DNA of 63,167 bases, the filler included, from Polymyxa betae A26-41 (lineage: Eukaryota > Protista > Endomyxa: Phytomyxea), in NCBI GenBank assembly GCA_003693705.1. It is 7 parts of 7 records of this genome, joined end to end, with 100 filler letters (N's around TTAATTAATTAA, not from the genome) between each part and the next. Parts side by side here need not be neighbours in the genome. Positions count along the whole stretch, not along the records: positions 15,253 to 28,010 come from RBZT01000813.1; 6 more parts are not named here. The stretch is one strand, 5' to 3'. Each line of letters begins with the position of its first letter. The first letter of the stretch is position 1. The notes below the pieces were generated by a model, which searched no databases, had not been told where the DNA came from, and saw nothing but the letters and a program-made list of their open reading frames with translations. The position numbers and the translations under genes were made by a program. Of this stretch, positions 12,327 through 44,047 are shown in pieces.

Positions 12327-13695
12327 TCATGCTTCTTCATTGCCAGCATGGTTCCATAAGTGCGCTATCAAGTCATCCCGAAGCTTCCGATGCATTGCAG
12401 CATCTTGTATTCGGGACATTTCGATCGCTGCTTCACTTTCAGTGAACACGAATCCTGACCTCCTAGCAGAAACAGTAAATTGATGTTTCGGAACATACCT
12501 ACTGTGATTGATGTAATTAACATACAAAGCGTTCTGCTTCTCATAGTCCAGAATCAGATTGTGAAGAATAACACATGTCTTCATGACTGAATACATGGCA
12601 TCACGACACCACAGCATACAAGGAGTCGTCAAAATATGGAATCGCGCTTGCAGCATTCCGAATGCTCTCTCGGTATCCTTCCGCTTGCCCTCCTGCATAG
12701 ATGAAAATTTCTTCTCCTTTAGGGTTTTCGGATTGCTGATTGTTTTGACGAAGCAGTGATGGTTAGGATAAATCCCTTCGGCTAGCCAGTATGGGATGGT
12801 GTATGTATTCCCTTTTACCTGATTAGAAGTAGTCAGTGATTGATCAATCATAGGAAACAGGAAACCTTGTAGTTAACAATCGGCGATCGGCCATTAATAG
12901 CATCGTGCAGAAGAATAGACCGATCCAGGACGTTAATGTCGTTCAGCGAGCCTGGCATTCCAAAAATGAAGTGCCAAAACCGGCAAGAACGGTCAGCGAC
13001 CGCCTCTAATACCACTGTTGGCGACCCTTCTTTGCCTGTGAACATTCCCGCCCAAGCAATAGGACAGTTTTTCCAGGTCCAATGCATGCAGTCAATGGAA
13101 CCAATGCATCCAGGCCATCCTTGTCCATAGCTTTGATCTAGTAGTTTGTTTAGGTCTTGGATAGTTGGTTTACGAAGAGCATGTCGCCATAGATTGCCTC
13201 AATTGCAGCACAGAAGCGCATCATGGATTGTCGGGTCGTGACTTTGGACATTCGAAATTGATCATCTTGCTGTTCTGCCGAAACACCTGAAGCAAATATG
13301 CGAACGACATTGCTAATCTTTTGGCGTGCACTGAGGCCTAATTTTTTACAGGCGTCCCGTTTCTGGATAAAATAATTGTCGTACTCCTGCACTTTTTCAA
13401 CGATCGTGTCAAACAGGCCAATCGGAAGGCGAAACCGAGCTTTAAAATCTTCGGCATCCTAAACTGGATTAGGACCCCAGTAATCCTCATGAAGAAGCTG
13501 ATCGTAAAGGGCTCGCCGACGATCTTTATTTGGAGATCGGCGTTTTCTGGTATTGCTAGCCTCTTCTTCGCTGGACGAATCATCCATAAGTTCCTGCATG
13601 ATCATCTCGAGATCGCTACAATCCTCGCTGTCAGAAACATATCGATCAGGACGAAATTGCTCCCAGAATGCATTTAGATCCATGCTATCGCTCAA
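12327..13695 (-). pseudogene. Harbinger DDE transposase with a 47-nt intron (12819-12865) and frameshifts
   Basis: GSIDCMHWTWKNCP; LEAVAD..FWH..GMPGSLNDINVL; YWLAEGIYP; KDTERAFGMLQARF; CVILHN. Confidence 0.9.
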
Positions 13696-15252: not shown

Positions 15253-15399
15253 GGAGGCCGCTCCTCGCCATTCATAGTAGGGAGACGAGGGGACCCGCGC
15301 AGTCCGTGACAGTTAGGGCTCTTCCCCTATAGGAATCGTCAGCAGGGGCGCAGCCCTCTGCGCAGCCCCTCGGGCCAGTACGACTGCCTGGTGGTTGGC

Positions 15400-17260
15400 T
15401 GGGCGGCTGCGAGTACTGTCATGCTCAATGGGCATGACAGTGCATCAGTTTCGCTGCTTGCTGATTCTTGTTCAAGAATTGATTCTCTATCGAGTTCATG
15501 ATTAGCCTCGTCCGAAGGATCTAACGGCAAGTATGTCATGGGATCTTCAGGTTCTAAGCAATCGGAGCGGCCAAGGGTGAATTCGTTTTCGCAGATGGTG
15601 GCATCGGAGAATCTCGAACAGAATATTCGAGCCTTGGCAGTGTCCCAAAGCTGGTAGCCTTTGTGTTTTGCCGGATATCCTATGAAGATCATCTTCTTTG
15701 TCCTTGCATTGAGTTTCCGTCTGAGTTGATGAGGGGTATGTACGTATGCGTCGCAGCCAAAAACCCGTAGCGTCTGTATATTTTCTGGGTGAGAATGCAA
15801 GAGGGGATATGGGTAGGGTTCGGGTATGGGGCTGGTATCCGACCCGACCCGACCCGATCGGAGCCCTAGCGTTGATACGCATGCATTGTGCACTTTCTCA
15901 AATGGTCCTGTTGATTCTCTCTGCCATGCCGTTTTGTTCTGGTTGGTAGGCCACTGATGTTCGATGGGAGATACCATGATCTGAGAACAGGTCCTGACGT
16001 TGCTTTGATAGGTATTCAGAGCCATTAGAGAGTTTTCGGAACGCTGATTTGGACGGATTCAGATTCAGATGGCACCCCGTTAGAGCTACGTGTATGGCAT
16101 CACTTTTGCGCTTCAGTCCAAAGATATGTGCGTACCTTGTGAATTCGTCGAGAAATGTGATAAAATATTTCAAGCGATGGTGCAAGCTTTCAGGAAAGGG
16201 TCCACAAATATCACTGTGAATTATCTGCAGCGGACGAATTGCTGGAAACTCGGATTGTTTGGGTATATGACCACGAGCGGATTTCCCATGTAGACATCCC
16301 TGACAATGGAAACTATCCTCGCTGTCCCTTGGAAGGTTGATTTGATGTTTCTCAAGGATCGTCTTCAGAGCTTTCTCATTGAGGTGACCCAACCTGGAAT
16401 GCCACTTTTGGAGCAAGCTTTCGGTCTTTAAAGCTGAGCAGGCTAATTTGCTGGACTCACAGGCATTTGAACTTACAATTTTATACAAGTTATTTTTGTC
16501 TTTGGTGACTTCGTTAATAAGTCGATTTTTGCTGTCGAATATATTGCAAAGATTATCTTCGAATAGGAATGAGAGTCCTGCTTTTGTGCATTTGCCAAGT
16601 GATATTAGATTTTGTGAAATTTCGTCAGAGTGGAACACTTCGTTGAGGCTAATTTTTCCTTGACCAATCATTAGTGAGGCCGTGCCTCTTTTTGGAAGCT
16701 TGACGACCTGATAAAACTTTTTTGAAAATCTTACTAGCTGAGATTGAATGCCTGGATGATACGGGTCCATCATTGATAGCTGCGAATGCGTGGCATTGTG
16801 GAATTGCTGAAGATTGTTGAGCTCTTCTGCCATCGCCGCATCCATTTCTTGTGACGTGACTCTGCGGCATGGCCCAGCATGACCTGCGGCGTCTATTATT
16901 TGCTGCGGTCACGCGTTCGCTGCTTGTTTGGATAATGTTGTTGAGAAGCCCGATAACGTTGCTAATGTTCAGAGAGCTACCTGAATCGAGAAGCCATTCA
17001 GTTGGCTTTTGGACAGTCGGACAAGTGAGGGAAGCGATGTAATACTGGGAATCAGATTCTACTTGTTTATTGGATTTTTCAAAGCGCTTGGGTTTGAGTT
17101 CAGGATGCTGGTACCAGCACGAACTGTCATCGTGGCTCTTGGTCTTGTGGATACTGCACCACTTACTCCCCTGTGTTCTTTTTGCGACTTTTTCTTCTTC
17201 ACACTGTCGATGTGCAAGCTGAGATTCAAAGTTCGGAATCTCGTTTCTTCCGCCGGCTGA
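15400..17260 (-). mobile_element. Degenerate Ty1/Copia element (gag knuckle, GAG-pre-integrase, integrase)
   Basis: WCSIHKTKSHDDSSC knuckle; WHSRLGHLN..CQGCLHGK; IHSDICGP; YQPEQNGMAERINRTI; LRVFGCDAYVH..MIFIGYP. Confidence 0.9.
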
Positions 17261-18409
17261 AACTGGGCTGCTCTTCCTCCGGCTGAAATCAGGTTGCGCT
17301 TCCGCCGGGTCTGATACTAGAGATAACTTGTCACAGTGCTGTTCACCCAGCGTCTCAGTCCTCTGTGATCGGCGTTGTTATTGAAGATCTGATACCTTGC
17401 CTTCGCCGCCAAAGATGGTTTTATGATCAGAATTGAATATCGGTTAATAGTTTTCCTTGGGATATCAATTACTGTTCCCCGTTTTGCTCAGCAGTGATTC
17501 CTATTTTGTATTTCTTAAACATGTATATTTCAAAAGTTGAGCAATTGTGCCTCAGCAATTTGCAGTTCGTCAAATCCTGCGCTATAGGGATTCGATTGGA
17601 GGGGGCAACCGCTGAGATGCGATTCTGTGATTTTGAATCCCTCTCGATTCGCAATCAGAACATCGAATCCTGCCACCACGCTGCATGTTGTAAGCTCGTT
17701 GATCGTGCACAACCTGTGCAACGGCGACGTTTACCGGAGCCGCTGTTGGCATCTGCTGATGCTGGCTGGCAAGCGGCTGTGAGGATAATACCGTCTAGGG
17801 GCAACGTGATCACCCTGCTCGGTGGGATTCCACAGGAACTACATTGTGACAACGGCAAACCGAGCATACTCGTTTGGCTCGCTGTTTAGGTCGCAGACCT
17901 GTTCGAGCTAAAACCGAGCGATTTTCTAAATCTTGGTTTCGGACACGCCCCCGTTGGCGCTCTGGGGCTAGCACTCCTAGTGCCGGCGCCGTTTCTGTAT
18001 CAAAAATGTCAGTGGCTTGGGAGCCTGCAGTGTTGATTAAACTGGCGATCGTCAATCTGGTTCGCTTGTACAGATTGGGGGATTCTTGCGCTAATGCAAC
18101 CAGCTGCTTTAAATTCTGCATTAAGCGGCTATATCTCGCAGCTTGATCGCGAGCAAAATCAATTTGCTAGTATGCAGCCACTTGCAAACTTATTACAACG
18201 CTTGCAGTCTCGTTGGGTTCGGAAAGAGGTCTTTCTATACCACCACCACCGGAACTGCGCAGCTCTTCTTTTGCCTGCCTTTTGAACATGCAAAATTTCC
18301 CACAAAAAAAGCATGCCACGGAACGCACTTTTTTGAATTCCAAATGCATTGGATGGCAAACCAAATGCATGTATCGGCAGGTCTGCGGAAGCGCAGTTTG
18401 GCAGTTCCA

Positions 18410-18554
18410 TTATTTCAGGAGACCGGCTGTCGCCGTACACTCTGCCTTGGCTACGCGTTAGCAATCAATTGCAATCTTAGTTGTAGCTAGGTAACCAGAG
18501 GGTCGTCCGTTATTTCAGGAGACCGGCTGTCGCCGTACACTCTGCCTTGGCTAC
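18410..18554. repeat. Pair of identical 45-bp direct repeats with a 100-bp period
   Basis: TTATTTCAGGAGACCGGCTGTCGCCGTACACTCTGCCTTGGCTAC at 18410-18454 and 18510-18554. Confidence 0.95.
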
Positions 18555-20469
18555 AAGATCGTTACTTGCGTGTAGATCTAGACCACCATGAAATGCTTTC
18601 GTAGTGTATGTTAACACTAAAACGATCACGATATAATGCAAATGCATTGGCAACGTCGTACTTGCGGACCTTCGCAGTCCGAGAAAAAGCTGAATTTTTC
18701 AAGAACTAGCTTGCAAAATGGAGACTGCTGCAGCTGTCTCTATGGTAATTTTTGTTCAAGATGAAAAACTATAGCAAAGGTGCAGCTCCTATCTGAAGAG
18801 AGCAATCCGAAGAAACATCGCGAGTCGATCCATAATCATTCGATAGATTTGGAAACGCAACGGTGTGTCAAAATTTGCCAATTATTGACTAAGGAGACTC
18901 CTCCCTTTGTCTCAACTGATGGTTACAACGAAGAAATCGCAGTAAAGGGTTTACGGTTCGTTGCTAAACTTGAAAATCTTCAATTTAGCGTTACCCGACC
19001 AGGTAAAATAGGAATATTTTCTAATACAAATTTTTAAAACTCACTCGTATGTAATTGCAGCCAAACGCGCCAAGGATACCGAAAAGTTGTCTAAATCAAA
19101 TCGAGATGCTTACTGGCCCAGACACCTCTGGCTTGATCATCCAGAAGATGCCATCATGACAACGGCAAGCCAAGAGAAAGGAACGAAATGTCTCGCTTGG
19201 TTCGCAATCAGATCCGAAAGCACAAGTATGAACACAACTGTCTGTTTGAGATCAACTTGAGCCATGAAATAGTATGACACCAGAGACGTTGAATGCCGAT
19301 GCCGAAATTCTCCTGGCCGAAATCAATGCTCATTTACCAGGCGCTGAGGCTGATATTGAGATCGTGAGAGCAGGTAAAGCTTGACCTTTTTGCCATTCCT
19401 CTCCTCTCTGAATACATAATCACCTCAGAGTTTTTGCGTAAGCTACGCAATGCTAGATCGAAAGCTAATTACAGAAACAAGCACGGATCCAACAACAAGA
19501 ATAATGAAGGTGAAAATTCTGATTTCTTGCTTGGTAATGACAACCTTGGTCTTTTGCTGGCAACCATTCACCAGGAATTTGTTCAATCTGGAGATTCATC
19601 AAAGGTTCTGTTTGATCCTGAATCTGTAACAGGCTCAAAATTACGAACTAAATTAGTTCAACATTTAAAGAAACAGCTTCAAAACAAAAAATGAGGCTTC
19701 AGAATATGATTGAATAAAGAGTAGTTAAATTACGACGATCGCTCAGTGTCCCACATAGCCTATGAACAGTGTATGACACAAGACGTATCAAGCATCTCGG
19801 TTGTCACCTCCAATGTCGAAGATTTCAAAGCCAAAGCGAACACGCAATGGGTTACAGCAGTATTGCTATTGCCAAACATATAGATGCAATGGAAAGCTTC
19901 GCGATCCACGAACATTTAGTAAGCATTGCCAAGCCGATATTGAGCGAGTCGAGGTTTCTTCACCTGCTTCATTATCTTGTTCCGAAATAGAATGTAGGTA
20001 TTGAGAATATCCTGGAATCCGCACTCAATTTTCCACAGCAATAGCTGAAAGTGATGAAATCATTGCAGAACATGTTACGCAAGGTTGAAAAACATTCCAC
20101 CCATCAACTTCAGCTCTTAACTTTTTAGTGGCAGGTATTTTGGAAGAGGACAACCTCTGTGGTTATACTAGCTCTATTGCTGATATGAATGATGTGAATA
20201 TGTCTGGTTCTCAGGAAGAAGATGAGACTGATAAGGGATCGGGACTCCTGAATGATCTATCAAAACTCAGCAGCTCCGATAGCATATCAGAAGAAAGTGA
20301 CTGCTATAAGTTTGATACTCGCATTTGCAGTGGCATTCAGAGCGCCAGAGCAATTTTGAGAACTTTGTCGACAGTACATCGAAACCAAATGCACGAACTC
20401 GAAATCGAGAGCCTGAAACATCTTGAAAAAATCAAGATAAAGATAATGCAGCTCGCAGACCAACGATTT

Positions 20470-21269
20470 CGCTCTGCGATCATCTCGGAGGAGGTGAGCA
20501 TCCGGCACCCCGCCAGGCTGAGCAGGACGTCCTCCGGGAGTGTTCTGTGCTTCGTGTTTGACAGGTAGTCAGAGCGGATAGTGGCATGTGTGCCTTGCAA
20601 AAGGCTCGCCACGACATCGGTGATGGTGCTCTTGCCTGTTCCTCCCTCAACTAGGAGGAGCATAACCTTGTGAACCTGTCCGGGATCTAATAGGGAGTTG
20701 CCCAGGAACCACTTAAAGGAGTTGAACTCCTCCTCCGAGCTAAACAGGGGCCGCAGAAATCTCTCCGTTCGCGTGACTTGGGACACATCCACGTGTTCGC
20801 CTAGGTGTACATAGTGGTAAGGACTGCAGACCGAGAACGTCGACACTCTCGGGTTGATCTGTTCCGGAACTGGGACGATACCCATCACAGGCTCAAGCTT
20901 GAACACATCGGGCCACTGGGTGTCTCGGATCAAGTACCGCGTGTCCCAGACACAGATAGACTCCGGTACGAGGACGTGGACATGGACGCGCCGGGTGAGC
21001 AGGGATACATAAGGCTCGAAAGCCTTTGCCCAGTTGACTGGGGCATACGAGCCGACAGTGCTCAATACCTGGGCCGCTGCGGCAGGCGAGCACAGGGGGA
21101 GCCAGCAGCCTGACTCGTCACTCCAGATATAGAATGAGTTGCTGTATCCACAGCAGAGACCCGGCTCGATGTAATGTTTGTATATTAGGCGTGATTCCGA
21201 GCTGAGCTTGGTTAAAGTCTCAACTGGTTCGAACGCCTGCAAGCACGAGGACATAGATGGTCGCTCCAT
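20470..21269 (-). CDS. Virus-like D5-family (superfamily 3) helicase, C-terminally truncated
   Basis: D5_N-like FYIWSDESGCW; FKWFLGNSL; Walker A EGGTGKST; Walker B-like LAGCRMLTSSE. Intronless and visibly richer in GC than its flanks. Confidence 0.8.
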
Positions 21270-21301
21270 AGCTGGTTCCGTGCCATCTGCGATGCATACA
21301 A

Positions 21302-21628
21302 ATGTCTGCGATTCACAACGTTCACTACGACGTGAAGTCTGATCGCATCACCACCCGCCTGTGTCGAAGGGACGGCAAGTACATTACCGAGACGATCGAG
21401 ATAGATATTCTTCCCGTGCAGGTTGAAGACAACCCGGAAGTCATCCTCAAGTCTGAGTACGATGTGAGAGACGAGCTCACTGGGCCTGTGTTTAGCTCGT
21501 CCAAGGTTTTAAAGTTGCTTCGGAGTGCTGCTGTGTACGGTGTGACTCTGGGATTGTCTCGAGGTCCCGGACGAACCCCTATTCCAACCTTAGACGATGC
21601 AACGGGAAAAGCTTCGACGAATTCCTGA
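21302..21628 (+). CDS. Hypothetical protein divergent from the D5-like ORF, probably truncated
   Basis: The ATG is 33 nt from the helicase ATG, it has the same composition, and it ends at the junction back into CACTA sequence. Confidence 0.5.
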   Translation: MSAIHNVHYDVKSDRITTRLCRRDGKYITETIEIDILPVQVEDNPEVILKSEYDVRDELTGPVFSSSKVLKLLRSAAVYGVTLGLSRGPGRTPIPTLDDATGKASTNS

Positions 21629-22273
21629 CTTTATATCTCTCTGAAATGTCGTCAGCGCCAGATCCTGAGACAGGGGAGCTTATACCTATCTACAAAAACT
21701 TCCCATGAGGATGGAATCAAGCTAAAGTCTCTCTGCTCAGAGATATATTCTTGTCGTTGAAGCCCATCCCTATGGAATGCTGTTCCCTAGGCCACTGCAT
21801 CTACGTTTTTGATCTGGAAAATGCCAGCCAATGTCCTATTTGTACTGCACCCAGAACAGAATCCAAGCTGTTTTTATACTGTCCAATTTCTTTTGATTTA
21901 CAAGTATGTCGTTGATGAAGATACCGGTAATGATGCCACGTTTTGAAGAAGGAAATTTCTTAGATGCGGTTCTCATTTCCATCATTTGCAGCCTTTTTCT
22001 GGGAAGGCTTTGCACAGATCCAGGACCTTGTAAACTTATACAGCGATCACCATCAAAAAGAAGAGCTCATGACAGACTGGGTTCATGGAGACCTTTTCTA
22101 TGATATCTATATCCCCTTTCACACCAGAGGATTCCAAGACCGGAAACGAGGCTACTGGTAAAGTGCTGCTTATTTTGTAAACTCAAGGCTGAAGCTAACA
22201 CCTGAGCACAGATAAGAGAAGAATGATTATCGCCTTGTCGCGTTGTTTTGATGGTGCCAAAATTCATGATTCG

Positions 22274-25200
22274 TGTGTCAATATTTGCAGAATATTTCCA
22301 GAAAAAGACTCTTATTGTATTATGAATATAAACGGCCCTATATTCAGGACGACTCCGCCACGGACTCAAATGGACTCCGTGACGGAATAACCGGACTGGA
22401 AATGGGAGCTGGAATACAGAATTCATTTAGCCCCAAATCACGAAGATCTGAACCCGTAGATCTGCTACAAAGACGTCTTATCTAGCAAAGATGACTGTGA
22501 GGATAACTGAAGAAGAATCTCAGAACCACGTGGACGACATGTCAATCGAATACGAAGAAGATGATCACCGCAGTGATGTGGTTAATGAAGAAACCGAAGA
22601 TGAAACTGCGACAGATGAAGCCGGTGACGTCAATGACGAGTCGTCCGAAGCAGCAATGGCGACGGCGGAGGCCATCGCCAATGGTGCATTCTCCAATGCT
22701 GACATTGTTCGGCAGCAGAGCATGCACCGGGAAGATCCAGAAGAGGTAGCTGACCGTCGTGGTAACAGCTATCGTGGGGATGGGCTGGCCTCTGGCGGCC
22801 TCGCCGTACTGGAGACGAATCGGGCGCTGATCCTGAAGATCCCCGACCGGAACCGTATGTTGAAGTTTCGGAAAGAACGAGAGCGCTAAATAGGCGTTTT
22901 TCGAGAGGCCGAATTCCCGGGAGTAACCCCACGCTCGTTGGTGTCCTGCATTGAACCGTCGATGTTAAAGTTTATTTGTGAAAATAAGTTTGAAATATCA
23001 GTTGAAGATGTGACGATCAGGATATCGAAGGTTGGATGGACGGTTTTCTGGCCTCCGACCTTTCTAACGATGCGCTCATGGACTAGAAGCTGAAGGCCGT
23101 TAAGATGGACCCACGCATCACACCTCCCAGTGGCCGAGTGATGGCTATGATGATCCGTTTCGATCAGATTGTCGAAGAAAACGGATGGGGTGACGTCTTC
23201 AAAGAAGAAGAACGGAAGAAGCGGAAGGTAAAATCTTTACTGAACGCTGTTGAACCTGTAGGTCTTAAGACGATTATGGAGACCGCGCTAAAAAGAGAGC
23301 CGAAGCTGTGGTCGCGGCCTCAGGCGTTCGGCATAATCCTTGAGATGATGGCCGAGAGCCATGAGGAGACCGCAACAGCTTTAAAGGCGGTTAGCGAAAG
23401 GAAGATCACGGGAAAGAAGCGCTCCCGTGAACAACAGCTAACTGCTAATCCGAAGAAACCCCAGAAGGAGAAGAACCCGAAGAGTAGAGAAATCGATGAA
23501 AACTGTACGCTGGAATGTTTCAGCTGTCGCAAAAGTGGGCATCCGGCCTTTCTGTGCCCAACCCATCCCTTGACTAAAGCGGAAATTCGCGCACTTTTGA
23601 TGGAGAAAGATAACAAAATTCAGGAAGAAACATTCAAAGTATCCATTGGTATGCCGAATTGGGAGTAGGGTAGATGACAAACAAATAGATGTTAGGATCT
23701 GTGAAGGTTTATACGTACCAGGTATCCTAGATAGCGGCGCCACGGCGGTGTCTCTAATACGAAAAATAATAGCCGATCGTGCTATGAAAATTGACCCTAC
23801 CATAGAAAAGATACAGCTCGCAGAACCCGTGCGGTTACTTCTGGGCGATAATGTTACAGAGGTAATCGTCACGGACGCCGTAACTCTAGACATTAGACTA
23901 CGGACATGTGCGGGTGAAGTCGTATCACTCCGACGGAAGTGCCTGATATGGGATGTACCCAGTGACGAAATCATACTGGGGAGCGACCTGCTTGAAGAAC
24001 TGGGAATAGAGCCAAAAACTGCGCTCGATGCACTTATTTGGCGGAAGAATGTCAGAAACGAAGCTAATGGCACCCAGAGAACTGATGAAGAATCGCCAAA
24101 CAGTGATATCGAAGAAGGGAGTGACCAGGATGAGGGCGCAGTAATTGGGTCCGTGGACCAAACGGAGGTGCGGTCCGAAATTGAAGCAATGCTGAAGAGA
24201 GCAGAAGAAAATGGTCTCCCCAAAGAATGGCGAAATAAACTGAAGAAATTATTATACAAATTTGAAAAAGCATGGCAGGTGAAGTTAGGGCCAGAACCGC
24301 CAGCAAAGGTCACGCCTTTCGTGACTCAGCTGAAGCCCAATTCACAACCTTACAAATGCCTGGCAAGAAAATACAAATCAGAAGATAGCGAATTCCTACA
24401 GAAATTCGTAGAAGAATTGATGAAATATGGACTGGTCTATGAAAATCAAAATTCAAAATGGGCCTCTCCTGTAGTTGTTGTGAAGAAATGTGACAGTGGA
24501 AAAAGAATGTGCGTCGATCTGAGAGCAGTCAACGCGTTCAGCGAGAGCACAGCGTGGCCTATGCCATTTTTAGAATCCATAGTCAACCATTTAGCGGGAT
24601 CCAGGCACTGGTTCAAGCTGGATGCATTCAAAGAATTCTGGATGATGCCGCTAGCAGAAGATTGTCAAGAAATGTTCTTATTTATGACAGATAATGGCGT
24701 CTATACGCCTAGGTCAATTCAGGGCGCTTTAAATTCAGCGACCCAGTTTCAGGCAAGAATGGCTGGAGTCTTTAAAAGCCTCCTTAATAAAGCCTTGATT
24801 ATATGGATTGATGACCTGCTGGGACATGCGAAGACATTAGATGACTGGTTCCAGTATCTTGAGAAGACATTACAATTGGCCTTAGAAAGTAACATAAAAT
24901 TTAACGTGAAGAAGTGTGAACTCTACAGTAGGTCGGCCAAATTCTGTGGACGAATACTCTCTCCAGATGGCGTAACCCACGACCCGGAAAGGACTGAGAC
25001 CCTGCTAGCAATACCGCAGCCCAAAACTGCGCGAGACCTGCAGCAATTTCTCATGGCGACTCTGTGGATGAGCCGATCGATTCCAGAATATAATAAGACA
25101 GTTAGATGCTTACAAGATATATTTGAAGAATCAATGAAGAACCACCCCGCACGAACGAAAAGCGTAGCGAGACAAGTTCGCTTATCGAAGTATGGCTGGG

Positions 25201-26920
25201 GCCCGCAGCATGCGCTGGCTTTCGAGAAGCTGAAGACCGCGATTGCATATCGTACAAAGCTTTCATTCCCAAGAGATGATATGATTCATGTATGTTCACT
25301 GATGCGAATGACTATAATACATCTGGAATGGTTACACAAATTCCGATTGAAGATNNNNNNNNNNNNNNNNNNNNNNNNNNNNNNNNNNNNNNNNNNNNNN
25401 NNNNNNNNNNNNNNNNNNNNNNNNNNNNNNNNNNNNNNNNNNNNNNNNAGAAACCATTTAAACTTTTCTGCGATCATAAAAATTTGATACAGATTTTTTC
25501 TCCGCATCAGGTGTCGAAACCTACTGCGCAGAAATTGCAGAGATGGGCCCTAGAAATGCAGAGATTTCGTTACGAGATAGAGCATATCAAAGGCGAAGAA
25601 AATTATTGGGTTGACCTCATGTCACGCTGGGGGGCCAGTACGACAGGAGAAGAAGATGGGCCTGTCCTCATAAGAAGAGCGAAAGTATTGAAGATCACAG
25701 ACGAAGGGCGAGTACGACCCACGCAGAGGCCTGATTTTGTATGGCCTTCGATAGAAGAAATCAAAAAGGCGCAACAAGACTTTTTACAAGTCAAAAACCC
25801 TAAATACAATGAAGATGGGTTATTAGTTACGCATGATAAACAGAAGATTATAATTCCTAAAGAAGCGGAAAATTTGAAGATTAGGCTTTGTATAATTGCG
25901 CATTCAGGCGAAAACAGCGGCCACCTAGGCTATCAGGCTGCTACGCAGAAACTTTCGCAGTATTTTTACTGGCAAAACTGCGCAGAAGACATGCGCACTT
26001 TATGTAACTGGTGTTTACATTGCCTACCAACAAGAGGGGGAATGTGTATTCCTAGGCCGCTAGGTACACAAATTCACGCATCCAAATGCAATAAATTGAT
26101 CCATATGGACTGGATTTATGTATGGCCAACGAAGAAAAACGGGGTTCACGAATATCAGTGGAACCTGAATTTGCGCGACGACCTTTCGGGCCTCGTGAAG
26201 ATAACACCCGCAAAGATCCCTGATACAGAAGTCACGGTCGACGCACTGATGGAATGGCGCGCGTTGTTTGGGACCCCGGAGATATTGGTCTCAGACATGG
26301 CGTCGTACTTTGTGTTCGAATACATGAAGAAATTTGCGCTGAAGTTTAATGTTACACAACATCTCAATACAACGTACGGGCACTATAATAACGGAAGCAT
26401 CGAAGTGGTGAATAAGTGCTATCTATCGCTGATGAGAGCACTGCTTTCCGAGTTACGTTGGGACAAGGAATACTGGCCCTGGTTGAATTCCAACGTTGAG
26501 TATACGTTGAATCATAGACCGCAGAGCCGACTCAACGGAAACGCTCCCATAACAGTGATGACTGGCTTACAGCCAGATAACCCATTAGAAGAAATTTTCA
26601 AAAATCCAAAAAATCTTAATTTTATTAAAATATGAATTTCGAAAGACCAGATTCAAAAACTGGTTGATGACCTTGAAAATGCGTTAGAAAAAATGCATAA
26701 GGAAGTAGAAGAAACGTCTCGGAAGCAACGAGATGCGAAGAAAAGGACCGCAAACAAATACCGAAGAGAGCCGAATTTCGGTATCGGCGATTACGTGTTA
26801 GTTGGCATAGCGGAGCCCGCTAAAATGTCCGGACGCAAACTTTTCTTAAAGTGGCGCGGCCCGTACCGAATAGTCGCTACAGAGGACCACTACATATTCG
26901 AAGTCGAAAACATCGTGGAT
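22274..26920 (+). mobile_element. Ty3/Gypsy element: 5' LTR (22274-22469), gag, protease-RT-RNase H-integrase; 3' truncated
   Basis: LTR TGTGTCAATATT...GCTACA; CFSCRKSGHPAFLC; ILDSGA; RMCVDLR, WIDD; integrase HMDW..SDMASYF..NGSIEVVN; WRGPY. Long open pol frames. Confidence 0.95.
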
Positions 26921-27060
26921 TCGATTGCCTCAGTTGTTCTAGTTGTCTTCAATGTGAGACAGCCTCACTACACACTACGTCCCCCAAGGCAAGTTCACCT
27001 TGCGACAAATTTTCATAGCTAAACCGCTCTGTGAGCCGGATTTCAAATTCGAACTTGAAT

Positions 27061-30697: not shown

Positions 30698-32303
30698 TTA
30701 AAGCGGCTTTTTGGCAGAGCATAAAATACCATTGATGTCATGATTATGAATATTTGAATATTGAATGAGTTCAGATTTAACATCTTCTGGGATCTTCCAA
30801 TAGAGAGGATGTTGAACTAGATCACGGATATGTTGATTGTGTTCCATATACTTCAAAAGGACAAAAGACTTAAGAGAATTTTTCAGTCCTGGGATGTCTG
30901 AGAGCATCAGTTTGATGAATTCCGAGCACATTAGGAAGTTGATAGTCCGCTGGAGAGAACAGCCTATTTTTTCTTGAAGAATGAGATCGAAGACGGAATT
31001 CGTGTCAGGAGGCTTCGCGAACAGAGACGCATTCGGAATTCCCATCAGAATCTGCGCAATATCGTAATAGTTTTCGGAAACGGCACACCTCAGCAGCATC
31101 TGAGTAGGCATTGCTCGAATAGGATACATTGATGACTTCGGGCATGAACGGAAGTTGGGCCAGACTCCGGACAAACTCCGTGTACTTCGATCTCAGCATG
31201 TCGCAGGCGTATTCGATGAACGTCTTAGGCTCTGAGAGAATTTGTCGCTGAATAAACGGGATCCGCAGCCATTGCAGAGCCTGGTCCGGGCCAGTACGTC
31301 CATCATGGGTCTGTTGGTGGACATCGGAGCATCGGGCCGTGACCAGCTTGCGTAAGGATTCCATGACTGTAGAAAAAGAGCGAAAATTGAGCAAAGGGGC
31401 GATATTCGGAATAGATTCGGGAGAAATCTGGACATAGTCAAGATAGTTATGGAAATGGAACACGATCCCGAGCTCACGCAGAGCCAGTAAATTTTGCCAT
31501 TTCGCAAGAGGATGAGATTCTTTGGGAAACGATTCCAGAATCAGGCAGAGGACGTCGTATCTGTCCACATAACGGAACGGGAAAGGATAACGAGGGCCGA
31601 TTATGTTGTCGAGTTCATGGGCATCTGGATATTCGATCCGACCGGCTTTATTGGCTTGACGTCGTCGGAGGATTCGGCCCAGCTTCCCTCGTTGATGCCG
31701 AGGCAACATCTCTTCGATCTTCTGCATGATCACAAGGAAACCGGGGTCCTGAAGTGACTGTGATGGAGCGGAAACGCAAACGACAGGAAGTCCGGGAAAA
31801 AGGCGACCAGTTTTTGTCTTAAAGAATGCGTTCACATCATTCACCAAGGTCAGGCCCAGATCTACGATCATAGTCCGCAGCACTTCGGCCTTCTCCTTAT
31901 AGCTCAATTTCCCAGCCCACATAATAAACTGATACACGCCCATGACCAGCTGCGGAGAGATATTCTTGAGATCATCGCGGGTCTTGGAATCGTACCGGAC
32001 TCGGACTGCAAGAATACGGACCAGCTCGGGGATCTCGCGGATCCGGGTATTGGGCGATTCGAAAAGGGCCTGTACGACCCGGCCGCGGTCCACCTGAAGC
32101 AGTCGGCGGCATGTCAGACTGAGATGTCCCAGGTCCGTGACAGAGCATTGCTTGAAGATCTGCTCCAAGATATCATCCGGCAGACCAAGGATATTAAATT
32201 CCTGATCCGGGAGAGGAACGAGATCAGATTCCGGGTCGGAGGAGGCGGCCGCTGCCCCCAGGACCAGTACGGCCGCCGCCATCATGACAACCAGAGCGCG
32301 CAT
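30698..32303 (-). CDS. Signal-peptide F-box protein (candidate effector) with one +1 frameshift near 31121
   Basis: MRALVVMMAAAVLVLGAAAASS signal peptide; LPDDILEQIFKQCSVTDLGHLSLTCRRL F-box; ankyrin-like LLRCAV..YDIAQILM near the C-terminus. Confidence 0.8.
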
Positions 32304-32519
32304 GATGGTGGGAATTAAGGACGAGAGTGTTTCTTCCAGGCCGGTCGGACCGGGTAGGTCCACCACGCAGTTTCTGCGGCCATTGGGCACAGGGCCACCA
32401 GTCTTGTTAGGGTTTGAAGGACTCCTTCCAGTCGATCAATGTCGCTGATTAATCACTGACTGTGTTTTCCAATCTACTGGAATTTGAGACAGCCAAACAT
32501 CATACTATACGACACCATA

Positions 32520-38022: not shown

Positions 38023-38559
38023 GTAATCTCTTTACAAGTCTGATAATTGCCAGTAGCTAAAATCTTTTATAAAAGCATCAATTGACGTTATCACCTGCTC
38101 TGCTGCTGGTTGCAACAGCAACATGAGAGATTATTTCGTATTTCCATATCTTATCTGCTGTTGCAAAGTGGAAGCAATAATAGCAGCAGCCAGATCTAAG
38201 ACGCGGCCAAGACCCCAATAAATGGCTCTCACTCTGTATCCCCAGCACTGACAGACATGTTATGTACACAAGACAATAGCTAGATCTACAACTGTACCAT
38301 GGTATTATACTAATACATTTGATAAACAGCCGAGGCATTACATCGATTTTGACTGGGCGTTTCGATGGAAGTTCTTAACGGGCATCCCACAATTATGCAC
38401 GATACGTTCAGGACGTCAGCAGAAGTGTTTCGAAACCATGCTGTTTGATTTGGATTTCAGGGGTGTTCGAATCATAGCTCCAACCCCATCCTGGTTTGTT
38501 TTCGAGCAAATCATAATTCTACGGGGTATATTTAGTTATCAGCTGATCAAATATCAATA

Positions 38560-40466
38560 CGCAATCCCTTTCCAGATGCCTTCCAGGATGGGGCGGCTGC
38601 TCGCTCAGATCCTGGTGCAGTACCGAGGAGAAAGAAGAGATGGGAGCGCAGATCGCGGGAGCTGGCTTGGGTCGTAAACTCATCGATGGCGTCCATGATG
38701 GTGTCATGGGCTCGGCGCTGCTCCTCGTTCAACGCCGAAAGGTCGCGTTGATAGCGCTGAAAGATCCTGCCAACGTCGGCGGTCAGGTCTCCTACGGTCT
38801 GCAGCTGGTCGACCAGGCTGTCTCCGTCGAAGGTTTCCACTTGATGAAGCAGGTCGTCTGGGAACGATGCCAGCTGTGGCAACGACGTGAAGTCGGCAAG
38901 ACTGGATTCCATCGATTCCAGGATCGAATGGAGCATGCACAGCAGCAAAACTGATCGCTTCGGTCGGAATGCCGGCCAACAGACGTCGGTGTCGCCGTCG
39001 ACGAATATCTTCGGTGAGTGCGTTGCTGAAGCGGTCGAAGAGAGCCGCCAGGTCCGATGGGCTGGCACTACGTTTACTCTGAATACCATTATCGATGGTG
39101 TTCGGTCGCGCGGTCGCATTGCAATCGTGTATTATTCATCGCGCATATCGGCGCTGTTGTTGCACGGAGGGCGTACTGCACATTCGGCTTTCAAGATTCC
39201 CGTCCACAACATTAATGACGAGAACGCCTGCTGGCTACCTCTCCAGTCCGAGATGGCTGCCAAGATCCGGGACTCGGTACTTACGATCTGGGACGAGAGC
39301 TTCATGCAGGACCGGTAGTGCTTCGAGTCTGTGGACCGACTGTACCGCGACATCTGCATCCGCCCACAGATCCCGCTCGGAGGCAAGGTCGATCGCTCAA
39401 GGCGTCAATGTCCAAGACCAAGTGCGATTCGCTGCGCTGCTGGCCGCAACTGGCGATAGAAGGGTGCCCAAATTCCAAGTTCGGACTCAACAGGTTGCGC
39501 TTCCGCCCCAATGGTGCCTGCCGGTCAGCAATTCGTTCCGCAACGATATCAAGACCCTGATCGACGCCATCTACCCGAACCTAGCAGCGCAGCTCGATAA
39601 TCAGCAGGACGACCTAGCGTCGCGATGCATCCTGACTACCAAGCACCCGGACGTGGACCAAATCAACAACACCAGCCTGGGTTTGCTCCCCGGCGATGCT
39701 CAGGAGCTGGTCTCCGTCGACGCCATGGATCCGGAATCGGGGCGCGGTGGCGACTCTTTTCCCATTCAGGCCATCCAGAAAGCTGCACCGGGCGACTTGG
39801 CTCCACACCGGCTCCGAGTCAAACCCAGGATGCATCTCTTTCGGATGCGCAACATTGATCCCGAGGCAGTGATGTGCAGTGGAACGCGATTGATCATGGA
39901 ACAAGCCAGCGACATGCTGCTCAGCTGCCGGATTGCAACTGGGACCCGTACAGGCAAGCACTTTTTTCTGTCTCGCATTGCTTCCGAGTCATCGTCCAGC
40001 AAGTTCCACATCACTTTCCGCCGGACACAGTTCCCAGTAAAGCCGGCGTCGCGGTAACAGTCAACTAGGCACAAGGGCAGACCCTGGGTCTGTTGGGTAT
40101 ATTTCTCTACGACCAGGTATTCGCTCACGGGCTGTACGTGGCGCTCTCCCGGGTTTGTCATGGTACTGCAGGCGCAGCCTGTGTAGTTTCTTCCCGGTAA
40201 CTCATGCAAAAAGAATTCTTCCTTGGCAGTCATCAGCCAAAACAAAACAAAACAAAAACGAGTTGTACGCGTTCGAATTCCTTTTGGTCAGTTAGCTGCT
40301 GTGAAGTTCAGGCGGCAGTTTCGACAGAATAACCGCTCCAGGGCTGTTAGTTCAGGGCCCACTTAAACATTACAACTCACTCCTTTGCACTCATCAACCA
40401 AAACAAGGAAAAGTCGTACGCGCGCCCTAAAAAGGACCGCTCATCTGAGCGGTCTGTGTATAGTAG
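38560..40466 (+). mobile_element. Helitron RepHel (PIF1 helicase) remnant with an internal inversion and a 3' hairpin
   Basis: SALLLHGGRTAHSAFKIP; IWDE; RNID...CSGTRL; RRTQFPV; QGQTL; HGLYVALSRV. Hairpin GACCGCTCA-TC-TGAGCGGTC at 40435-40454, then GTAG|T. Confidence 0.88.
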
Positions 40467-41860: not shown

Positions 41861-43791
41861 CGTTGGTTATGCGCCAAGAGCATGGCGCTTCAGCCAGAGA
41901 GCATGGGCGCCACAATGGATGAAGAAGATATCATCATCTTGATCTTAGGGAAGCTACCTTATTCCCTGAAACATGCAGCAGCCGCCATTCGCAGTGAGCG
42001 AGGCGCGAACAAAAGAAACCTGGACGAGGTCCTCAAGTATCTGACTGATGAGGCGGAGATTGAAGAGGCACAACGTTAGCGTCGCAACGGTGGACGAAAT
42101 AAGCGAAATGATAAGGATGACACTGAGGATAACGAGTCAGCATTTTTTGGTCCGTGGATACAAAGGGAAGAAGAACAATCAAAGTGCCAAGAAGCAAGGA
42201 GCGAAATCAAAAGACATTGTATGTCATCGATGCGACAAGACCGGTCACATTGCTCGCAACTGTCGTGAAACCCTGCCGGACGACACTTCATCAACGGCAG
42301 CCCTTTATGCCACATTTATGGCGAAGGCATTGATTCAAGAGACGTCGTCAAGAACATGGTGGATCGACTCCGGATGTACCGCACACATGACGAATGATAA
42401 GTCGGCTTTGACAAACCTGAGAGAGCCGCATACTAACGCGGTGATTATCGGAGATGGAACAAAAATGGATGTCAGTGCTACGGGAGACTACACTGAAGGA
42501 GGCGTCACGCTGCAGAACGTTCTGTACGTTCCAAGTCTGAAGGACAAGCTGATGTCAGTGAGCTGCGCTCTGGACAAGGGCGTCGACAAGGTGGTGTTTC
42601 TAAGAAATTCGGTCGAGATCATCAAGCAAGGGAAAATGATCGCAACTGGCAAGCGAGACGGACTTCTATTTCGACAGAATATCGAGAAAGACAGCACGCA
42701 ACGCAAGACTTCTACAAACTCCCAAGAGAAGACGACAGCAAAAGCAACCTACGAGCTCTGGCAAAGAAGGTTCGGACACCTACACTACGAGGCCATCAAG
42801 AAACTTCACCAAGAAGGAAGGATCATCGCTACGGGTTCCGTCCCTGACCAGCCCTGCTCAACCTGTGTAATAAGCAAGCTTCCACGGAAGCCGATCAACC
42901 AAGGTCCCATTGTCCGATCTAAGTCGGTGGGCGAGGTAATTCACTCGGATGTTTGTGGACCATTTAACGTCGTAGGCAATTCTGGTGCGAAGTATTTCGT
43001 AACATTCATCGACGGCAAGAGCCGCTTCATCGCTATCTATCCTATCGTAAAGGAGTCGGAGGTGTTCGGAAAGTTCAAGAACTTTGCTGCGGCCCTTGAA
43101 GTGGAGATCGGACGCAAGATCATTCGACAACTAATATCCGACAATGGCGGAGAGTATACCGGTGAATTCTTTCGCAACTACTGCAAAGCCAACGGCATCC
43201 AGCAAGTGACGACCGTTCCTCATACCCCACAGCAGAATGGAGTTGCAGAACGCGTTAATCGGACGATTGTTGAAGGAGCCCGTTCTATGATGCAAGAAAC
43301 CTCCATGCCGTCAAGCTCCTGGTCAGAGGCTGTAGTGTACGCAGCATACGTCAGAAATCGCTCACATTCACGTGTTCTGGACCACAAGACACCATACGAG
43401 ATGAGGTTCGGACAAGTTCCGGACTTGAAAAAGATCAGAATATTCGGAGCCAATGTATATTACCATGTACCTAAGGCAACGCGCACAAAGCTAGACGACA
43501 AAGCAGAAATGGGACGATTTGTTGGCATCCCTTCTTCACAACATGGTTTCCTTGTCAGAACTATGTACGGCAAGCTGACAAGTTCTAGAGATGTCGTATT
43601 CGCTGAGAACCAAAGCATCAACGAGGCTTCGGACGATGATAATGAAACAGAGATTCCGTTCCCGGCCGCATCTAAGGATAATCGCATTTCAAATCCAAAG
43701 ACCAATGATGAAAGTACTGACCAAGACGAGAGCAGCGATGATGATGACGACTTCCACACCGTAGAAGAATATATGGATGCAACAGAAGACG
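41861..43791 (+). mobile_element. Ty1/Copia element (gag, protease, integrase), truncated by the contig end
   Basis: CHRCDKTGHIARNC; WWIDSGCTAHM; IHSDVCGP; SDNGGEY; TPQQNGVAERVNRT; TKLDDKA..GRFVG. Confidence 0.95.
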
Positions 43792-44047
43792 NNNNNNNNN
43801 NNNNNNNNNNNNNNNNNNNNNNNNNNNNNNNNNNNTTAATTAATTAANNNNNNNNNNNNNNNNNNNNNNNNNNNNNNNNNNNNNNNNNNNNCCTTATCGG
43901 AACATCATCGGTTCCGGATAGTTAAATAAATCAAGGGTCACCTGCCTCTCAGAAATGGAAATGGTGATATAGACATCGGTATAAACTCCAACCATAAATT
44001 ACCTAATAGAGAGAGAGCTGGACGTTTAAGGACCTAAATACAAAAAC

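Follow-up and report, generated by a model that had tools for sequence, protein, structure and literature searches.

A dead two-gene fragment within a host repeat of Polymyxa betae, likely derived from a small self-replicating DNA element

Double-stranded DNA viruses are considered rare in fungi and protists. The D5 protein of poxviruses is a ring helicase, and a DNA-unwinding role for the helicase family described here is proposed by analogy with it. The primase-helicases of poxviruses (D5/E5), ASFV and SaPI5/phage P4-type elements share with this family a collar plus ATPase fold and the Walker A and Walker B motifs; these enzymes, however, are about 780-900 aa long and have a primase or zinc domain in front, whereas members of the family are about 450 aa long and have neither. 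Killer/helper plasmids of the pGKL type carry two RNA polymerase subunits, a capping enzyme and a superfamily 2 helicase, not a D5-type one. According to PMC13348850, the pGKL-type polymerase is a protein-primed PolB, in contrast to the RNA-primed type suggested for the present family; the same paper describes fungal cytosolic virus-like elements as high-copy, capsid-less linear DNAs that are recognised by a read depth 7-58-fold above that of the nucleus and leave integrated remnants.

Larger or better described viral groups also offer points of comparison. Mriyaviricetes, giant-virus relatives of 35-45 kb with an HUH endonuclease, resemble the family in their small genomes and in SF3 helicases with a degraded primase, yet, according to PMC11253617, they have no DNA polymerase and their helicase is the C-terminal part of a larger protein, whereas the family is stand-alone, with one member joined to a PolB. 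Mycodnaviridae, giant viruses of zoosporic fungi with chytrid hosts, carry PolB and a D5-like gene (PMC13533422); their genomes measure 200-350 kb and encode a D5 helicase-primase, whereas the present family is without primase and lies mostly on short contigs. Polinton-like viruses (Polisuviricotina) and their endogenous protist copies share with the family the size class (15-30 kb), the occurrence as separate contigs in protist and chytrid assemblies and, in some cases, stand-alone SF3 helicases. They differ in that the fragment, the only part of the element read, showed neither a capsid or integrase gene nor an A32 ATPase or a terminal repeat, and in that the one polymerase linked to the family is of the RNA-primed type.

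The locus compared here with these systems lies in a window of 63,167 nucleotides from P. betae (the whole stretch of DNA that was analysed; all coordinates are positions along this window, not along its records), and data on it were taken from six listed public sequencing runs (X1-X6). Words of the stretch 20470-21628 were found in five of the six runs, belonging to three studies (all words in X1, 88% in X2, 10-15% in X3-X5); X1 may be the source of the assembly. A single contig of 1,182 nt over 20453-21634 spanned both ends of the insert in X1 with 0 differences, and a contig of the same length and extent did so with 7 differences in X2, which belongs to a separate study. Since contigs from two studies cross both junctions, as the earlier proposal of a spanning check had anticipated for a real insertion, the insert is genomic and not a chimera.

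Its limits were obtained from empty sister copies of the surrounding repeat. In both X1 and X2, contigs of such copies passed from 20479 to 21600 with 1 letter between; a second joint, also present in contigs of both runs, passed from 20482 to 21605 with 3 letters between, and each joint amounts to a net 1,119 nt. The insert, to which no strand is assigned, therefore occupies 20483..21601 or, equally, 20481-21599 (1,119 nt, 55% GC), the two readings being equivalent because the letters 'CA' stand at both ends (20481..20482 on the plus strand and again 21600-21601), as microhomology or a duplication. A reading made from the sequence alone (hereafter the sequence-only reading) had placed the edges at 20470 and 21628, which these joints do not bear out. 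The look-alike junction words that it had pointed to, ACGATTTC (20463) and ACGAATTC (21617), belong to the host and stand 12-16 nt beyond the edges of the insert. Words of this kind occur 6 times in the window, and the pair was rejected as a target duplication. No integrase-made target duplication was found at the insertion, where the overlap is of two letters only, a result that concerns the fragment and not the donor, and no terminal inverted repeat of the insert was found (9 of the 20 first letters match). The segment was rightly described as richer in GC (55% versus 41-42% in the flanks), although this contrast is valid only against the repeat, because other gene-like parts of the window reach 54-62%, and GC content was rejected as proof of foreign origin.

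The depth of the spanning contigs (193.5 in X1 and 12 in X2) was close to that of the empty-site contigs (144 and 199.5 in X1; 10.7 and 16.5 in X2), so the filled copy is single. The allele of the insert in X2 showed three non-silent and one silent codon changes among the 5 of 7 differences listed. Altogether the insert is a decaying, truncated, single-copy fragment of two genes inside a host repeat, for which the earlier term 'cassette' was too strong.

The two genes are arranged back to back. Two divergent, stop-free frames begin at 21269 (minus strand) and 21302 (plus strand), as had been noticed before, although the start codons are separated by 32 nt and not by 33; both are truncated at the insert edges, in agreement with the earlier observation. 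The gap between the start codons (21270..21301, no strand) is likely a compact two-way promoter. On the minus strand, 20483..21269 comprises the 5' part (262 codons) of the gene for a D5-type SF3 helicase without primase, which breaks off directly behind Walker B; its start is intact because the insert aligns from near the first residue of the family members. The frame continues into host DNA up to a stop at 20337. The Walker A/B-like motifs that had been recognised in this ORF are present: by alignment, Walker A corresponds to codons 207-214 (20628..20651, minus strand) and the Walker B region to codons 257-262 (20484..20501, minus strand), which end at the acidic residue of the family (D in 41 and E in 12 of 53 members). 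The first glycine of Walker A was kept in all 53 other aligned family members, as well as in the relatives of the insert in X1 and X2, and is a valine in the insert. The set of residues of a working enzyme is thus incomplete, given the valine in Walker A and the end of the sequence after Walker B, before the sensor and the arginine finger. The insert is dead: its helicase is cut after Walker B and lacks the otherwise invariant glycine.

The plus-strand gene (ORF2) is represented by its 5' part of 100 codons (21302..21601), delimited by the frame and by relatives at 85-88% identity; the frame extends into host DNA and stops at 21628. Four of the six listed codon changes between ORF2 and its relatives were silent. 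No hit to Pfam, PHROGs or the Atlas, no word-indexed homologue and no match among the collected family proteins was obtained for it, and its single-sequence model (pLDDT 37) gave no usable fold. Profile searches, proposed earlier for both ORFs, yielded a helicase family for the minus-strand ORF and none for ORF2.

The host repeat, on the plus strand, is divided by the insert into a left part (18400..20482, left limit approximate), which contains an ORF at 20089-20482, and a right part (21602..22273). It is decayed and present in a few copies, with several divergent contigs per run. By its motifs it may be a CACTA-like (Tnp2) DNA transposon; the name 'CACTA-like transposase' had the same basis, and Pfam recognised no transposase family in any of the nine read-through frames (9/9, stops read as X). 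The right limit, at 22273-22274, is marked by a jump in depth together with loose ends, where the transposon gives way to a high-copy repeat that precedes a Ty3/gypsy-like element. This repeat (22273-22470), at about 40-110 times the single-copy depth, cuts the host transposon, and just past it 23087-27022 presumably represents a Ty3/gypsy-like gag-pol, by its motifs. Near the left limit, a 49-nt direct repeat with a spacing of 100 was observed at 18406-18554, with joints that vary in other copies; these are perhaps subterminal repeats of the host transposon. Elsewhere in the window, pieces at 15339-17377, 42045-43847, 12327-12872 and 38547-40057 were assumed, again by their motifs, to be decayed Ty1/copia-like, PIF/Harbinger-like and Helitron-like elements. 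Other frames of the window included one of 476 aa at 31005-32435 (minus strand), whose start resembles a signal peptide by eye and which continues with an F-box (Pfam E 5e-8), possibly a secreted F-box protein; two at 55507-57069 (minus) and 57623-58303 (plus) made of repeated CxxC...H zinc-finger-like units, the first with weak Pfam hits; and one of 507 aa at 50626-52149 (minus), with about 60% GC, hydrophobic stretches and no Pfam family.

Without the insert, the host frame of 20089-20482 runs in phase into a frame ending at 21708, and the length of the insert (1,119 = 373 x 3) keeps this phase. That observation, together with the absence of stops in both foreign frames, would favour the idea that the transposon gained useful cargo by taking up the piece, which it now uses or spreads. 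Against this highly improbable account stand the single-copy state of the insert with its empty sister copies, the stop met by the split host frame at 20568, within the insert, the cut helicase devoid of its Walker A glycine, and the mostly non-silent changes listed for the X2 allele.

In order to place the minus-strand protein, several collections were searched. Pfam gave sub-threshold matches only (best E 0.055; DUF5906 0.11) and word-indexed homologue searches gave no match, whereas the Atlas placed the protein with D5_N and DUF5906 clusters at 0.97 and PHROGs matched it to primase-helicase families at E 4e-9. Homologues were found only by a full HMMER scan, which returned 100 clusters at E<=0.001 (best 4e-33, 30% identity), 57 of which were 400-520 aa long. 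The fold was examined on the closest full-length relative (P0003, model pLDDT 92.9) and not on the truncated protein of the insert. This model showed a collar (D5_N) plus SF3 ATPase fold, and matched the SaPI5 primase-helicase (Z 20.5, rmsd 4.7, 315 aligned) and, from residue 322 on, vaccinia D5 (Z 18.4, rmsd 5.5, 307 aligned), residue 15 of the model aligning with about residue 323 of D5. Identity to all listed matches was 11-17%, and all of the top ones were D5-type helicases. Because P0003 aligns to D5 from residue 322 onward, the family is a D5-type helicase without the primase part; in agreement, the N-terminal archaeo-eukaryotic primase domain is absent, as the ORF and most relatives begin at the collar. 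The minus-strand ORF corresponds to the first 262 codons of a D5-type superfamily-3 helicase of about 450 aa without a primase domain.

These matches, together with the spanning contig of an independent study, refute the view that the insert arose by chimeric assembly or is part of a cellular ATPase gene, which is almost certainly wrong. In its favour there were the sub-threshold Pfam results and a sequence search of solved structures, in which ABC and AAA ATPases came out on top through the P-loop only; the fold of the family, the top matches of which are all D5-type, and the PHROGs primase-helicase match speak against it, and the grouping with a cellular ATPase that the sequence-only reading had named as its own refutation was not observed.

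The family appears distinct from viral D5-like proteins in the reference sets considered. A quick tree placed 30 family rows, the insert among them, on one side of a branch and 28 IMG/VR D5-like ATPases on the other (support 94, not starred); the quick trees were built without giant-virus or Polinton-like references, another one left out hits of <330 aa and P0083, and the place of the insert within the family was not settled by them. No family member was found in IMG/VR, JGI metagenomes or prokaryote genomes, IMG/VR having been covered by pattern scans of limited reach, and 80 IMG/VR loci and 371 phage records matched the ATPase core only. No published description of the family was found in the literature search, within the portions of the papers it covered; the supplements of 10.64898/2026.06.19.733378 may already include the chytrid contigs of this family. 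Of the 30 clusters looked up, six carry an organism name, in each case that of a fungus (Rhizoclosmatium, Blyttiomyces, Lobulomyces/Clydaea, Globomyces, Blumeria and Gautieria). The earlier notion that the insert is the footprint of a DNA virus or self-replicating element, as yet unclassified, is supported, although not its restriction to this lineage, as the named family members are fungal.

The longest contig per cluster measured 14-36 kb in 16 of these 30 clusters, >100 kb in 3 and <14 kb in 11, so that 14 of 30 lie outside the 14-36 kb range, and all such lengths are a lower bound on element size. Two clusters contained many contigs of nearly equal length (18.9-19.4 kb and 17.4 kb), a pattern that points to small but complete genomes. 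One member, from Rhizoclosmatium (P0064), had its helicase joined to a family B polymerase (PF00136 PolB, E 1e-37; PF03175 only 0.0035), the best solved matches of which were archaeal PolB, followed by delta and alpha; by these similarities the polymerase is of the RNA-primed kind. This link was present in one of the 100 hits and may reflect an automatic gene call joining neighbouring genes; an RNA-primed family B polymerase, as in Nucleocytoviricota, was present in that fusion and was not seen for the element of P. betae. No protein-primed PolB, TVpol or AEP-SF3 replicase was found in the hits scanned, where the sole polymerase was of the PF00136 type. Other members showed additional domains: a NADAR domain in P0040 (E 3e-39), a dUTPase-like tail recognised by eye, with no confirmation from Pfam, in P0091 and P0098, and an extra domain in P0122.

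The same runs that contain the insert also include relatives about 85% alike to it, with pieces at 80-88% over both genes. The differences listed (40 of 69 rows) comprised 35 for these relatives and 5 for the X2 allele. Among the 35 differences of the relatives, 25 were silent and 7 were non-silent codons (24% silent expected, p 2e-10), and 25 fell at third codon positions (p 5e-6); the predominance of silent differences indicates that the divergence of the relatives arose under selection in working genes. In X2 a relative extends 69 nt beyond the left junction, and the 30 letters shown, read by hand, keep the helicase frame open. Relatives were present in X1, X2, X3, X5 and X6 (five of six runs, three studies), with none among the X4 matches listed.

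Depth, given as rough per-contig figures, separated at least two types. Type 1 had a depth of 499 in X1, 2.6 times that of the insert, and a piece in X2 with a depth of 33.6 (2.8 times the insert) has listed changes equal to those of the type at 499 in X1, so that type 1 was steady at about 2.7 copies in both runs. Type 2 reached a depth of about 11,000 in X1, about 55-60 times the chromosomal depth, and was not seen at such depth in X2. The X1/X2 depth ratio was 12-16 at single loci; a high-copy host repeat gave 21-31, and pieces of the relative gave 319-394. More types were recorded at depths of 216 and 9.6, and a 1,635-nt contig of X1 matching 20762-20873 (80% alike over 112 nt) had single-copy depth (165.6) and probably represents another integrated copy of part of an element from this family. 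No relative at least 80% alike covers about 21115-21391, so the relatives do not show the two genes to be adjacent in the high-depth type. We infer that the genome of the high-depth relative is free and replicates, by the same reasoning with which PMC13348850 reads 7-58-fold depths as free elements; P. betae is therefore likely to harbour a live DNA virus or plasmid-like element that has yet to be classified.

The same depths could be produced by about 55 chromosomal copies if the donor were an integrating Polinton-like virus or self-synthesising transposon and not free DNA. We regard this as unlikely. The steady 2.6-2.8 copies of type 1 in both runs and the 3 of 30 clusters on contigs >100 kb are in line with integration, and so are the many integrated 15-30 kb viruses of protists that assemble as separate contigs (PMC10120064), the A32-like ATPases in chytrid genomes (10.64898/2026.06.19.733378, preprint) and the stand-alone SF3 helicases of polisuviruses (10.64898/2026.10.13.758929). 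The only polymerase seen in the family, however, is of the RNA-primed and not the protein-primed type; a 20-fold strain difference in one family is large when another repeat shifts at most 2-fold; and no family member appeared in the limited IMG/VR pattern scans, where the 80 loci match the ATPase core only.

Alternatively, the insert could be a real fossil while the 55-fold signal was created by amplification ahead of sequencing, or stems from an element carried by some other organism in a sample that was not axenic, with nothing active in the host. The library method of X1 is not on record, and the high type occurs in one of the two deep runs, the one that may be the source of the assembly. 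The recurrence of relatives in five of six runs from three studies, the relative at depth 6 in X6, where the insert was not seen, and the differences between types 1 and 2 at third codon positions all argue against this account, which appears quite improbable; besides, amplification bias would itself favour a free circular molecule, as is generally known.

Integrases insert from the ends of an element. Capture by end-joining is therefore favoured for the fragment, which has a microhomology of two letters and no terminal repeats and is cut within each of its genes. Taking the evidence together, we consider it probable that the insert is a dead, single-copy piece of two back-to-back genes, likely from a self-replicating element of about 20 kb (a virus or virus-like plasmid), which was likely end-joined into a break in the host transposon. 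Under this explanation, a donor fragment would have been patched into a break in one transposon copy. The donor would be a sister of the element still present, which probably persists in a small, stable number of copies and, in one sample, reaches dozens of free ones. As one fungal member of the family suggests, the element would unwind its DNA with the ring helicase and replicate it with an RNA-primed family B polymerase of its own; the primers would come either from a separate gene or from the host. The polymerase, capsid and size assigned to the element are borrowed from distant relatives (22-33% identity), no full genome of it having been seen, and the odds that it makes particles are about even.

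More tentatively, and with somewhat less than an even chance in our judgement, the host may be persistently infected by an unnamed lineage of DNA replicons of about 17-36 kb that extends across chytrids, higher fungi and at least this eukaryote. Such replicons would copy themselves in the manner of miniature giant viruses, would have an RNA-primed PolB and a primase-less D5 helicase, perhaps also an RNA polymerase of their own, would shift between few integrated and dozens of free copies per cell, and would shed fragments into chromosomes.

The fragment itself is junk, and endogenous viral pieces are common in protists; its value is that of a pointer. It leads to a distinct helicase family, tied to a specific host, that has no close relative among solved or predicted viral structures. 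Moreover, the element is probably present in the public run X1 at about 11,000-fold depth, which would allow its genome to be read directly. From that genome one could decide whether fungi and protists harbour a small replicon that copies itself in the style of giant viruses, and whether this replicon is a virus or plasmid-like.
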